From positions 1 to 5,674 of IMG/VR virus record IMGVR_UViG_3300045988_037143: 5,674 bases of DNA, one strand, 5' to 3'. The notes beneath the pieces are model-generated. The model did no database searches, was not told the DNA's origin, and saw only the letters and a list, made by a program, of their open reading frames with translations. This DNA is from a virus. Of this stretch, positions 3,353-5,674 are shown piece by piece; the first letter of the stretch is position 1, and the number at the start of each line of letters is the position of its first letter. The translations under genes and the position numbers were made by a program.

Positions 3353-3390
3353 CAAAAAAAACAGGGCTTGTCAAGCCCTGTTTTAAAATT
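3353..3390 (-). terminator. Rho-independent terminator. Perfect palindrome ACAGGGCTTG-T-CAAGCCCTGT flanked by A8 and T-rich tracts. Bidirectional, but strongest for the minus strand (stem followed by T8).
   Basis: Plus strand: CAAAAAAAA-CAGGGCTTGTCAAGCCCTG-TTTTAAAATT. Minus strand: ...AGAGAAAAATAA-TTTTAAAA-CAGGGCTTGACAAGCCCTG-TTTTTTTTGAT. It sits immediately after the stop of the 58-aa ORF. Confidence 0.7.
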
Positions 3391-3591: not shown

Positions 3592-3620
3592 ATTATACCA
3601 CAACTTTGCTTATTTGTCAA
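3592..3620 (-). promoter_or_regulatory. Perfect consensus sigma70 promoter on the minus strand: TTGACA - 17 nt - (TGg)TATAAT with an upstream A/T-rich UP-like tract
   Basis: The reverse complement of 3591-3640 is AACTTTTTTTCAAAAACCTC-TTGACA-AATAAGCAAAGTTGTGG-TATAAT-C. Both hexamers match 6/6 and the spacer is 17 nt. The extended -10 TGn is present. The predicted TSS is near 3585, giving a 20-nt leader with an SD for the 58-aa ORF. Confidence 0.7.
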
Positions 3621-3743: not shown

Positions 3744-3948
3744 TTTTCCACACTTTCAACATTTTCAACAGGTTTTCCACGAAAAGTTGCACAAATGGTT
3801 TTGTGCATATTGCTACACTTTCAACAATTCAACAAGTTATCCACAAAAGTATCAACATCAAAATAATCCAGAAAATATCGTTCCAAGGATAAAAATTCAT
3901 GGTATTCAACATTTCAACACTCCCTACTATTACGACTACAACAAGTTA
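3744..3948. repeat. Iteron-like array. There are six perfect TTCAACA heptamers in three closely spaced direct-repeat pairs: 3755/3764, 3820/3828 and 3905/3913. Flanking repeats are CACTTTCAACA (twice), TTTTCCAC (twice) and CAACAAGTTA (twice).
   Basis: Counted directly in the AT-rich intergenic region. Pair spacing is 8-9 nt, and the pairs are 65 and 85 nt apart. There is no minus-strand ORF here. The plus-strand 129-aa ORF across it is low-complexity. Confidence 0.5.
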
Positions 3949-3968
3949 ATAATAAATAATAATAATAT
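3949..3968. repeat. (AAT)n / AT-only tract (aataataaataataataata) immediately 5' of the GC hairpin
   Basis: Read directly. A 100% A/T 20-mer. Confidence 0.6.
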
Positions 3969-4008
3969 CATGCGCGTGCGTGCGCGATTACGTGCGCGCG
4001 CGTGCATG
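3969..4008. repeat. 40-nt alternating pyrimidine-purine (CG/TG) element. It forms an 18-bp hairpin (catgcgcgtgcgtgcgcg - atta - cgtgcgcgcgcgtgcatg) with 14 Watson-Crick pairs and 4 G:T pairs. It has potential to form Z-DNA or an ssDNA hairpin.
   Basis: Each arm alternates Py-Pu perfectly for 18 and 18+ nt. Arm pairing was checked position by position. It is embedded in 100% AT flanks. Confidence 0.6.
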
Positions 4009-4027
4009 TCAATATGAAATAAAATAC

Positions 4028-4063
4028 TCAGCCAAGTAACATACTTGATAGTTACTTGGCTGA
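4028..4063 (-). terminator. Perfect 13-bp inverted repeat (TCAGCCAAGTAAC / GTTACTTGGCTGA) with a 10-nt loop. On the minus strand it is followed by TATTTTATTT. Probable terminator downstream of VP4. The plus-strand loop is ATACTTGATA.
   Basis: The reverse complement of 4028-4040 equals 4051-4063 exactly. A second small hairpin TGACAC-caaa-GTGTCA (4065-4080) overlaps the VP4 stop codon. Confidence 0.6.
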
Positions 4064-4077
4064 GTGACACCAAAGTG

Positions 4078-5097
4078 TCAAAATACACCTTTGGCTTTGC
4101 TCATCTTTTTGGACATGGATGCTTCCTTGTCCTTTAGCTGCTCTGCGTATGACTTATCTGTTTCCGCGTTTCTTTCGATTAGGGACGCAATGGCTTTTTC
4201 CTGCCGATACTGTTTGATTCTCCACGCTTTTTCAGGGTTCTCCGCTTCCAGTTTTCGCCAGTAGTATTCCGGTATGGCTGCTCTCTTGCCGTTGGTAAGC
4301 TGTATGTATCCCTGCTGCCAGAGTCTCTCTTGATGGTCTCGGAACCATTGGTCTCCGAGTCCCGGCTTTCGGCTCATTGTGCAAAATGGTGGTATTAAAC
4401 CCATTTTTTGGAAACGCTTTTTGTCGTTGCCGTACAGCTTTTTAGTTACGTACCCTGCAACATAATTATATGTTTGTGGTACTGCTTGTGCGATGTCAAC
4501 TGTACCCTGCCCCCAGATTTTGACTAGCTTATCACTTGTGTAGTGACCGTGTCTTGATAGCTTATGGATTGGCTTTAAGTCGTCTGGGTGCCATCCGTAC
4601 AGTATCATGTGATAGTGTGGTCTCGCTGTGTTGTCTCCATACTCTCCGGCTAAAAAGTATCTCAGAGGCTCTTTGATGGCCTTTCTTAGCCTTTTAATAA
4701 AGAGCTGGGTATCCTCCACGCTCAATGTTTGCGTCGTTCTCGGACGCTCTGAGGTGCCTTTCCAGATATTTATGCCGCCTTTGTAGATTTCGCCTGTTTC
4801 TGTGTCTTGTGTTGGTACATGGTCATCGTCGTACGTTAGCGTGATAAACCAGACACTTTCTTTGTCGTATCCGTATGCTTCTAGCTCCATCCGCGTCGCC
4901 CAGTCTTTGCGTTTGCGCAGTCTGCACCCGGTACATTGTCCACATGGTATCAACATTACATCTTTGCGGTACATTAAATTTTCGTACGTCATTTTGGTCT
5001 TGTGTATCTCGTTAAAAGAGGCGAGTGAGTACACTCGCCCACTCGCCTCTCTGTCGTGAGGTACATAAAACCGAATTAACGGTTTATTGCATCCCAT
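4078..5097 (-). CDS. VP4: Replication initiation protein VP4 (339 aa), an HUH rolling-circle endonuclease
   Basis: The N-terminus MGCNKPLIRFYVP has the M-x-C-x-x-P-L form common in gokushovirus VP4. The CGQCTGC zinc-binding cluster is present. Motif I is FITLTY (residues 84-89). Motif II is HYH (residues 161-163, nt 4609-4617, verified). Motif III is YVAGYVTKK (residues 212-220, nt 4438-4464, verified), near-identical to phiX174 A protein YVAKYVNKK with its two catalytic Tyr. The ATG directly abuts the VP2 stop (TAAATG). Confidence 0.93.
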   Translation of the reverse strand: MGCNKPLIRFYVPHDREASGRVYSLASFNEIHKTKMTYENLMYRKDVMLIPCGQCTGCRLRKRKDWATRMELEAYGYDKESVWFITLTYDDDHVPTQDTETGEIYKGGINIWKGTSERPRTTQTLSVEDTQLFIKRLRKAIKEPLRYFLAGEYGDNTARPHYHMILYGWHPDDLKPIHKLSRHGHYTSDKLVKIWGQGTVDIAQAVPQTYNYVAGYVTKKLYGNDKKRFQKMGLIPPFCTMSRKPGLGDQWFRDHQERLWQQGYIQLTNGKRAAIPEYYWRKLEAENPEKAWRIKQYRQEKAIASLIERNAETDKSYAEQLKDKEASMSKKMSKAKGVF

Positions 5098-5674
5098 TTA
5101 TTTAAGTTTCCCTTTCCAATATTCGATGTTTTTGCTCCCGATGAAGTCTCTTCCCGGTTTGTAGTTGAGCTCATCTTTGGTCGGTTGTCTCCCTGCACCG
5201 CCGACGCCACTGTTTAGGTTGCTGAGGTCGTTGAAGACGTCCTTGAATGCATTAAACGCTTTGTCTGCGCTTGTGTGTGACCAGCTTGTAGCGTCTCCAA
5301 CCGCTTGTGCTGCGTTGTACCAGTTACTTTTGCTTTTGCTCCATGTGTTGTTGTGGTTCTGGCTTACTCCGAGTGCGCTTGCGGTCGCTGCACTGCTGCT
5401 TGCGAGGCCCATACTTGCCCCGCTGATAGTTCCCTGACTGCCGCCCGGTGTGCTTGCTCCGCCCTGTTGGTATGCTAAGATAGGGTTAATGCCTGCTTTT
5501 CGCATATCTTCCACGGCTCGCTGATAAGCTGTATTGCTCATTTGTTCTTGCCAAGCTCTGTTTTTGGCTGCTTCTGCGCTGTTGTAGGACATCGCCGCGT
5601 TGTTGCTTATCTGGTTATATACACCCTGAGTGATTGCCGCCATGGTGTTATAGCCCATTTGTTCGAACATGCTT
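5098..5674 (-). CDS. VP2: VP2 minor capsid / pilot protein, C-terminal part. Continues upstream across the circular junction to the ATG at 346.
   Basis: The 190-aa track ORF (MFEQMGYNTMAAITQGVYNQ...GGASTPGGSQGTISGASMGLASSSAATASALG...) is open to the window edge and in frame with 78..346. It has a Gly/Ser/Ala-rich low-complexity core typical of VP2. Its TAA is adjacent to the VP4 ATG. Confidence 0.85.
   Translation of the reverse strand, partial: SMFEQMGYNTMAAITQGVYNQISNNAAMSYNSAEAAKNRAWQEQMSNTAYQRAVEDMRKAGINPILAYQQGGASTPGGSQGTISGASMGLASSSAATASALGVSQNHNNTWSKSKSNWYNAAQAVGDATSWSHTSADKAFNAFKDVFNDLSNLNSGVGGAGRQPTKDELNYKPGRDFIGSKNIEYWKGKLK
5598..5674. repeat. Second copy of the terminal redundancy (identical to 1-77)
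   Basis: See the 1-77 feature. Confidence 0.9.

Follow-up and report, generated by a model that had tools for sequence, protein, structure and literature searches.

In the filamentous Ff phages (M13/f1/fd), the plus-origin nick hairpin [D] is immediately preceded on its 5' side by the minus-origin hairpins [B] and [C], and in plasmids replicating by the rolling-circle mechanism the single-strand origin (sso) lies just upstream of the double-strand origin (dso). In phage G4, the complementary-strand origin, ori-c, is used by the DnaG primase and comprises three hairpins and a CTG start site; the n'/PriA assembly site of phage phiX174 is a hairpin recognized by PriA. Both are intergenic hairpins of the virion single-stranded DNA (ssDNA) that resist ssDNA-binding protein (SSB) and recruit host priming proteins, and both are located far from the plus-strand origin, which resides in gene A. 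At the latter, the viral strand is cut by the phiX174 gene A protein at CAACTTG/ATA and, once nicked, is displaced and packaged; the nick is written CAACTTG/ATATTAATAAC for the phiX174 origin and CTTG/ATA for the pC194-type nick site. Here, we analyzed a stretch of 5674 nt, IMG/VR record IMGVR_UViG_3300045988_037143 (the window), which represents a complete circular genome of a gokushovirus (Microviridae) and harbors a hairpin of alternating CG and TG dinucleotides (the CG/TG hairpin) directly 5' of a putative rolling-circle origin hairpin (the ori hairpin). Hairpins have been sought earlier as candidate minus-strand origins in other microvirus clades (PMC9865509). The CG/TG hairpin is best filed as a variant of the familiar origin-region ssDNA hairpin, and the neighboring origin, which is inverted relative to the genes, as the more surprising result. 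We found no description of the ACTTGAT-loop module, this CG/TG hairpin or antisense packaging in Microviridae in the searchable literature.

Every recognizable gene of the window, as judged by family and profile matches, lies on the minus strand. The CG/TG hairpin is housed in a non-transcribed spacer of ~450 nt, bounded by a minus-strand sigma-70 promoter (3620 to 3592) and the end of VP4 (4078). As stated in a preliminary description of the window made from its letters alone, the 40-nt element (Table 1) forms an 18-bp stem with 14 Watson-Crick and four G:T pairs (3974:4003, 3977:4000, 3981:3996 and 3984:3993) and an ATTA loop; pyrimidines and purines alternate strictly in both arms. We computed the folding energy of each strand as ssDNA, a check that this description had proposed. 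The plus strand folds with -19.1 kcal/mol (z = -2.7), a value equalled by 2 of 200 dinucleotide shuffles, while conversion of all four G:T pairs into A.C mismatches limits the minus strand to -9.8 kcal/mol (z = +1.2), which does not surpass shuffled sequence. In a scan of the entire genome in 50-nt segments, the hairpin was the most stable plus-strand fold (-20.0 kcal/mol) and the largest outlier in strand asymmetry (-9.5 kcal/mol, compared to a genome mean of 0.08 and a standard deviation of 1.08). The CG/TG hairpin folds well on the plus strand only, i.e., on the strand that is antisense to every gene, which the preliminary description, having read the element as an ssDNA origin, had missed. 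It had also termed the element the sharpest GC spike of the genome, which is inaccurate (GC content of 0.70 for the 40-mer, compared to a maximum of 0.75 near position 2441).

Several other roles were considered for the element and rejected. Cruciform extrusion, or a palindromic operator, would require the 40-bp duplex (-67.6 kcal/mol) to give way to the two hairpins (together -28.9 kcal/mol), a cost of more than 38 kcal/mol that exceeds the ~30 kcal/mol which, according to our own estimate with the supercoiling constant that we also used for Z-DNA (see below), relaxation of 4.2 turns would free at sigma -0.06; moreover, the two strands are not equivalent. An intrinsic terminator was discarded given the four A.C mismatches on the mRNA (minus) strand, the lack of a call at this position by a terminator scan and the lack of a T-run after the hairpin on the plus strand. 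More generally, the same four mismatches on the coding strand, together with a location beyond the likely VP4 terminator, lead us to exclude an mRNA-level role on the basis of the predicted structures. A coding role was likewise dismissed, in line with the preliminary description: a 129-amino-acid plus-strand open reading frame (ORF) crossing the hairpin lacks a protein-family match, as do the other crossing ORFs, and the median stop-free stretch over the hairpin is ~45 codons on either strand among 61 relatives, showing that a crossing ORF is not conserved.

To relate the hairpin to those of other genomes, we searched with the spacer and obtained 44 matching GenBank microvirus records, with the hairpin kept in the five closest. 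The window, these five GenBank loci and 80 IMG/VR relatives from a Rep-based search made up a set of 86 sequences, 71 of which carry the alternating hairpin. In 14 of the 15 others the locus ends before or within the region, and only one, L081, truly lacks the element; in all remaining relatives whose locus extends far enough, it is located at the same position, just beyond VP4. Apart from L081, the absence from relatives that, according to the preliminary description, would speak against its proposal was thus not seen. The hairpin is also present in a second, distant clade, in which VP4 is only 56-57% identical, and in the more distant GenBank relatives L196, L197, L199, L200 and L202. L081 is an 8.8-kb contig in which the iteron/hairpin spacer, just 5' of TTTGATAGAC in the orientation of the window, is replaced by foreign coding-like DNA, with a breakpoint directly 5' of the ori module; it is either a chimeric assembly or a recombinant. 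A further concern was that the element might be an assembly artefact in a low-complexity region. GC repeats are prone to misassembly, and the window does contain a terminal assembly overlap of 77 nt (positions 1-77 and 5598-5674 are identical, giving a true length of 5597 nt). However, GenBank genomes of human, monkey and pig origin, which belong to several separately deposited record series, and about 65 IMG/VR contigs bear the element at an unchanged position, and pairing-preserving variants recur in assemblies and GenBank records that number in the dozens, are independent of one another and come from different hosts and countries. An artefact is therefore effectively refuted and, in our view, barely conceivable.

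The pattern of sequence changes in the stem is strand-specific as well. We aligned 33 distinct close-clade versions of the hairpin, each with 18 pairs, yielding 594 pair cells. On the plus strand, all 594 cells show standard pairing, with 140 G:T (G:U-type) and no A.C cells, and both partners have changed at 10 of the 18 stem pairs (63 cells). In a control in which the partner was slid by two columns such that alternation was kept, pairing dropped to 87% and double-change cells to 4-6. Any (YG)n arm can pair with any other (YG)n arm once G:T is allowed, and the positions bearing an A are therefore the informative ones; in the close-clade alignment, each A faces a T and never a C. A pooled tally of 41 distinct sequences, including the distant clade, gave 70 A-T and four A.C cells, the latter all stemming from distant-clade rows forced into the close-clade register, and T was the partner in 26% of the G-pyrimidine pairs. 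As judged from these alignments, the element is under purifying selection for pairing on one strand, the plus strand. A duplex-level property does not account for this bias, because a duplex cannot tell TG from CA.

This last point bears on the proposal, also made in the preliminary description, that the element forms Z-DNA. In such a double-stranded role, it might serve as a supercoil sink or barrier near the origin and promoter region or, alternatively, as a protein binding site with a tandem CGTGCGCG-ATTA-CGTGCGCG core. Indeed, the element shares with (CG)n/(TG)n Z-DNA tracts a strict, CG-rich alternation in two runs (3969-3986 and 3989-4009; about 18 and 20 bp, with at least about 12 bp taken to define a Z-DNA-forming sequence), and alternation is kept in every relative with zero transversions. 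A two-state estimate for a 5.6-kb circle, with energy parameters from the literature, placed the B-Z thresholds at sigma -0.040 and -0.042, within reach of purified plasmid-like DNA (-0.06) but beyond the usual unconstrained level in vivo. Furthermore, the core next to the loop, GTGCGCGATTACGTGCGC, which is also a direct repeat, hardly varies within the close clade. Z-DNA is thus physically possible, yet neither it nor a duplex binding site would distinguish TG from CA, while every A on the plus strand is matched by a T and A.C cells are absent. Selection on alternation acting symmetrically on both strands was not borne out either, as TG is common on the plus strand and CA is found only opposite TG in the stem. 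The conserved inverted repeat, the one-strand G:T bias and the compensatory changes are neither required nor explained by Z-DNA; the alternation itself is the expected by-product of a stem that changes only via G:T intermediates and by 2-nt slippage, and the distant clade retains the hairpin without the core sequence or the loop. Taken together, the comparative data disfavor a double-stranded role, which we consider improbable.

Covariation on one strand that tolerates G:U pairs is a classic RNA signature, and we therefore also considered a plus-strand RNA structure, antisense to the genes, possibly a small regulatory RNA directed against the 3' end of VP4. An Rfam scan returned, as its only match, tpke11 at 3954-4028 on the plus strand, below threshold (25.2 bits compared to a gathering score of 43; E = 0.036). 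We treated this match as due to chance; it probably reflects only the presence of a GC hairpin. In addition, no convincing plus-strand promoter was found upstream, the best sigma-70-like sites matching at 9 of 12 positions and not being conserved, and neither hairpin is followed by a U-run on the plus strand. Co-orientation with the nick-type module (see below) is better explained by ssDNA, and we deem an RNA quite unlikely.

A further explanation would see in the hairpin a neutral or selfish by-product, a CG microsatellite without intrinsic function that has grown at a permissive non-coding site. As (CG)n is self-complementary, slippage alone yields hairpins, and the arms indeed differ in length between clades in 2-nt steps, from 18 to 26 bp. 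The patchy distribution of the element fits as well: it is absent from L198 and from other gokushoviruses, while an unrelated microvirus has a shorter copy with an identical loop. On the other hand, the hairpin has persisted in lineages whose Rep proteins are only 56-57% identical, pairing is perfect and accompanied by compensatory A-T changes, and the bias against A.C is restricted to one strand, such that we give little credence to neutrality. No CpG depletion or TpG excess was seen. When 185,579 genomes of bacteria and archaea were searched for the element, a (TG)n microsatellite was the sole match, giving no clue to the host and no plasmid counterpart.

Some related sequences were noted elsewhere. 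The copy in the unrelated microvirus (L171; IMGVR_UViG_3300008807_000328, positions 778-817) is a 12-bp CG/TG hairpin with the ATTA loop (CGTGCGTGCGCG-ATTA-CGCGCGTGCGCG); the genes of this virus lie on the plus strand, and the G:T pairs of its hairpin fall on the coding strand. Its presence there could be due to transfer of the element or to convergence. In other parts of relatives, short palindromes of alternating purines and pyrimidines (TGCACGTATGTGCA, CACATACGCACATGT) are found, about 1.4 kb from the hairpin in L066, L072-L074, L079 and L083-L085, and at about 3000-3250 in L196 and L197.

The ori hairpin, 3' of the CG/TG hairpin, presents in its loop the sole copy of TACTTGAT in the window, on the plus strand, and this motif satisfies the CTTG/ATA nick consensus of phiX174/pC194-type double-strand origins. 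In both clades the stem of the ori hairpin covaries and the TACTTGAT loop is invariant; wobble pairs on the plus strand number 19 G:T compared to one A.C. The likeness to the phiX174/pC194 type extends to ACTTGATA, which is identical to 8 nt of the phiX174 origin, CAACTTGATATTAATAAC, and to the initiator, an HUH-type Rep. The phiX174 site differs in that it is embedded in gene A and not in a hairpin loop, while in the window and in gokushoviruses generally the site occupies the loop of a covarying hairpin that is followed by TGACACC. On the minus strand, a T-rich run, ATTTTATTT, follows the hairpin (4065-4026), which probably also terminates the VP4 mRNA, as the arrangement of stem and run suggests.

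To see how widespread this arrangement is, we surveyed 80 diverse IMG/VR gokushoviruses (L089-L168) for hairpins with a TACTTGAT loop. Among 46 distinct hairpins with this loop, 45 lie on the coding strand and a single one, in L142, is antisense; they typically precede (C)TGACACC...GTGTCA. The Chlamydia phage Chp2 (L086, 2893-2940) shows the same arrangement on the coding strand, ctagcgtataacag-TCTACTTGAT-ctgttatacgctag. The entire ori module of the window can be aligned with the coding-strand modules of other gokushoviruses, including an identical type of 3' flank. These comparisons point to a pan-gokushovirus module, composed of a covarying hairpin with a (C)TACTTGAT(GT) loop and a subsequent (C)TGACACC..GTGTCA, that probably constitutes the rolling-circle origin and is very likely to hold the Rep nick site.

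Based on these alignments, the ori module of the window lineage is homologous to the typical gokushovirus module but inverted relative to the genes, i.e., it resides on the non-coding strand. In L142 (IMGVR_UViG_3300026518_000187), the TACTTGAT/TGACACC module, at about 4110-4150 on the minus strand, is also opposite to all genes, and no alternating hairpin is present; this inversion apparently arose independently of that in the window clade. Because the nicked strand is displaced and, in Microviridae, packaged, the plus strand of the window, antisense to the mRNAs, would be the single-stranded form. The idea of an ssDNA origin at the CG/TG hairpin holds only if the lineage displaces and packages its non-coding strand, and the inverted ori module suggests that it does so. 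We therefore lean, if only slightly, toward the view that a widespread clade of human and animal gut gokushoviruses with an inverted origin packages the mRNA-complementary strand, making these viruses negative-sense Microviridae, with the CG/TG hairpin as their second-strand origin.

Several points speak against such a polarity. Microviridae are defined as positive-sense, and the encapsidated strand is here deduced from the orientation of the motif. A conserved coding-strand motif, TTAACTTGTTGTAG, could serve as an alternative nick site, and conserved TATTAACTTGTTGTAG, the coding-strand reading (reverse complement) of 3936-3951, leaves room for conventional polarity. We also asked whether base composition and substitution spectra reveal which strand is packaged. 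The coding strand of VP4 contains 44-47% A and 12-14% T at 4-fold degenerate sites, making the plus strand T-rich, and parsimony counts on the coding strand gave a G>A rate 2.25 times that of C>T and a C>A rate 5.6 times that of G>T. These values would be compatible with plus-strand damage of the ssDNA type. However, coding strands just as rich in A, with a similar AT skew, are found in several genomes whose ori lies on the coding strand, and a small set of synonymous singletons points the opposite way. We consider the skew and spectra equivocal, rejected them as a decisive indicator and did not count them as support.

In all members of the lineage that possess it, including L200, in which the iterons are flipped, the CG/TG hairpin shares its strand with the TACTTGAT-loop hairpin and is invariably located 5' of the latter, 16-100 nt away. 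The gap measures 17 nt in the window, 16-23 nt in the close clade (63 nt in L011, due to an insertion) and 33-100 nt in the distant clade. The element hence combines two attributes of complementary-strand origins, a stable structure on one strand and a position just 5' of the double-strand origin, with the displaced strand deduced from motif orientation. Because the hairpin is conserved with compensatory changes, is strand-specific and lies directly 5' of a nick-type hairpin, an ssDNA role such as complementary-strand priming is its best reading.

Based on these results, we suggest the following sequence of events. Rep (VP4) would nick the plus strand in the TACTTGAT loop, at TACTTG/AT, and the ensuing rolling-circle synthesis would displace the plus strand, which would probably be packaged. 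In each round, no structure would be exposed as ssDNA later than the CG/TG hairpin, because the nick, if situated in the TACTTGAT loop, lies 3' of it. On SSB-coated phage ssDNA, it would stay folded, with unstructured A/T-rich DNA on both sides, and may mark where host priming factors (primase, primosome or RNA polymerase) enter to initiate the complementary strand, i.e., function as a minus-strand origin or sso. Its G:T pairs would render the working strand stable and the opposite strand mismatched, and cruciform extrusion in the double-stranded replicative form would therefore be energetically prohibitive. The CG/TG hairpin as an SSB-resistant landmark on plus-strand ssDNA for complementary-strand initiation is a tentative proposal, derived from comparative sequence analysis, that we stop a little short of calling probable.

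The known systems resemble the window element to different degrees. In Ff phages, stable hairpins of the packaged strand are found directly 5' of the Rep (there, gpII) nick hairpin, function on one strand and have A/T-rich flanks, an arrangement that the window would share. The M13 hairpins, however, mimic a promoter (-35/-10) that is read by RNA polymerase, and such motifs were not found in the window element, which is a single pure CG/TG stem in a member of the Microviridae with a different Rep and folds on the strand antisense to the genes. The G4 and phiX174 signals come from the same virus family; unlike these, the window element is one alternating CG/TG hairpin, only 17 nt from the putative nick hairpin, and bears no recognizable primase signal. 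Plasmid ssos (ssoA, ssoU, ssoT and ssoW) are orientation-specific, imperfect hairpins just upstream of the double-strand origin that are exposed last, and their imperfections confer strand specificity. In contrast to them, the window element lacks RSB and CS-6 (TAGCGT), spans 40 nt instead of 150-300 nt and occurs in a phage rather than a plasmid.

With regard to priming, the structural part of the preliminary description's complementary-strand origin was supported, the structure being conserved, strand-specific and 5' of a nick-type hairpin, and some results weigh against the function assigned to it. In or next to 3946-4025, we found none of the known priming signals: no G4 triple hairpin with CTG, no ssoA RSB/CS-6, no promoter-like -35/-10 in the stem and no PriA signal. 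L198 and L081 lack the hairpin, the A/T tract of L198 abutting the ori hairpin directly, and the alternating hairpin was present in none of the 80 other gokushoviruses surveyed. From this patchy presence, the hairpin is evidently dispensable or replaceable. Other clade members have different GC-rich hairpins in the same slot, which would fit a less specific role, for instance in pausing or in assisting the folding of the ori hairpin.

Such a role would make the CG/TG hairpin an accessory of rolling-circle replication that, on the displaced strand or the template, pauses synthesis or nucleates folding of the nick hairpin, for clean termination cleavage and joining by Rep. It would agree with the constant location on the same strand 5' of the nick-type hairpin, with the different GC-rich hairpins (G6/C6) that fill the slot in other clade members and with the GC-rich hairpin that many typical gokushoviruses have directly 5' of their ori hairpin. 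Nevertheless, L198 and most gokushoviruses manage without such a strong hairpin, and the A/T-only flanks are explained no better than by priming. We know of no precedent for an accessory of this kind in phiX174-type replication, which needs only a 30-nt origin. We regard this alternative as unlikely, though worth keeping in mind next to complementary-strand priming. As a separate observation, additional GC-rich hairpins (e.g., CAAGGGGGGAC...GTCCCCCCTTG and GCAGCCCCTTGGGG) are located between the alternating and ori hairpins in L196, L197, L199, L073 and others, with none in L198, and stable hairpins seem to build up in the slot that precedes the ori hairpin.

The hairpins are embedded in a spacer with further conserved elements (Table 1). 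The A/T tract of 20 nt given in the preliminary description (3949-3968) is correct, and the pure A/T run as a whole covers 23 nt; in the close clade the tract is kept with variable length, and some distant-clade members have a shorter tract or one set apart from the hairpin. The spacer 3' of the CG/TG hairpin is A-rich and variable. Farther 5', where the coding strand reads TATTAACTTGTTGTAG, TAG/TAA trinucleotide repeats and a T-rich TTATT tract come next on that strand; this region is similar to a phiX-like AACTTG nick motif as well as to a DnaA-trio/unwinding element.

Table 1. Sequence features of the window, with positions counted from its first nucleotide.
Feature	Position	Strand	Remarks
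VP1 capsid	392-2032	minus	
VP3 scaffold	2029-2532	minus	
VP5	2483-2872	minus	
Iteron array	3744-3919	plus	six exact TTCAACA as three tandem pairs; TTWTCCACA variants at 3744 and 3837
(CTA/TAC)n trinucleotide run, then 16-mer CTACAACAAGTTAATA	3924-3939, then 3936-3951	plus	kept in both clades and in GenBank L196-L202
A/T-only tract TTAATAATAAATAATAATAATAT	3946-3968 (23 nt)	plus	abuts 5' side of CG/TG hairpin
Alternating CG/TG hairpin, 40 nt	3969-4008	plus	arms 3969-3986 and 3991-4008; loop ATTA 3987-3990
A-rich unstructured spacer between the two hairpins	4009-4025	plus	
Putative rolling-circle origin hairpin	4026-4065	plus	perfect 15-bp stem; loop ATACTTGATA; TACTTGAT at 4042-4049
Sequence bearing the putative nick motif, TACTTGATAG		plus	
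3' flank of ori hairpin, GACACCAAAGTGTCA, mini-hairpin	4066-4080	plus	conserved; overlaps VP4 stop codon on the other strand
VP4, rolling-circle replication initiator (HUH Rep)	4078-5097	minus	PF23343; phrog_942, E = 2e-112; 3' end adjoins ori module
VP2 pilot protein, 281 amino acids	from 346 over circular junction to 5098	minus	

The iteron motif TTCAACA has seven matches in the window, six of them inside the array, compared to about one expected. The DnaA-box-like variants at 3744 (TTTTCCACA) and 3837 (TTATCCACA) interchange with TTCAACA in relatives, and L200, L074 and L084 have the iteron block in the opposite orientation with respect to the hairpins, an arrangement that suggests a duplex-binding protein as the binder. 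An oriC-like reading, with DnaA box, DnaA-trio and unwinding element, was not adopted and is kept as a side observation: the window contains three boxes of relaxed consensus, a number matched by 3 of 200 shuffles, the boxes interchange with TTCAACA and the block is invertible. Some gokushoviruses carry dif sites (PMC7062461). An XerCD/dif-like integration site was rejected here, as GTGCGCGATTA resembles a XerC arm only superficially, and the element itself forms a hairpin that covaries. Elsewhere in the window, the promoter at 3592-3620 on the minus strand is a perfect extended sigma-70 promoter (TTGACA, 17 nt, TGnTATAAT) directed at small ORFs and the late genes, and a 13-bp perfect palindrome with flanking A-runs and T-runs (3358-3384), located between two small ORFs, resembles a bidirectional terminator. 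A tRNA scan found no tRNA in the window.

Gokushoviruses are the dominant ssDNA phages of the human gut, and their replication signals are essentially uncharted. The present analysis yields three testable results, a pan-gokushovirus origin module, a lineage-specific, very stable hairpin with a one-strand G:T pattern and the deduced antisense orientation of the latter strand relative to the genes. If complementary-strand priming on a packaged antisense strand is true, the strand asymmetry of the hairpin would provide an independent sequence-level read-out of which strand exists as ssDNA, and strand-aware virome methods and annotation pipelines would have to allow for antisense packaging. The hairpin and the ori module may be useful for engineering or reviving these uncultured phages. 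If virions carry the antisense strand, the textbook definition of Microviridae as positive-sense would need qualification.

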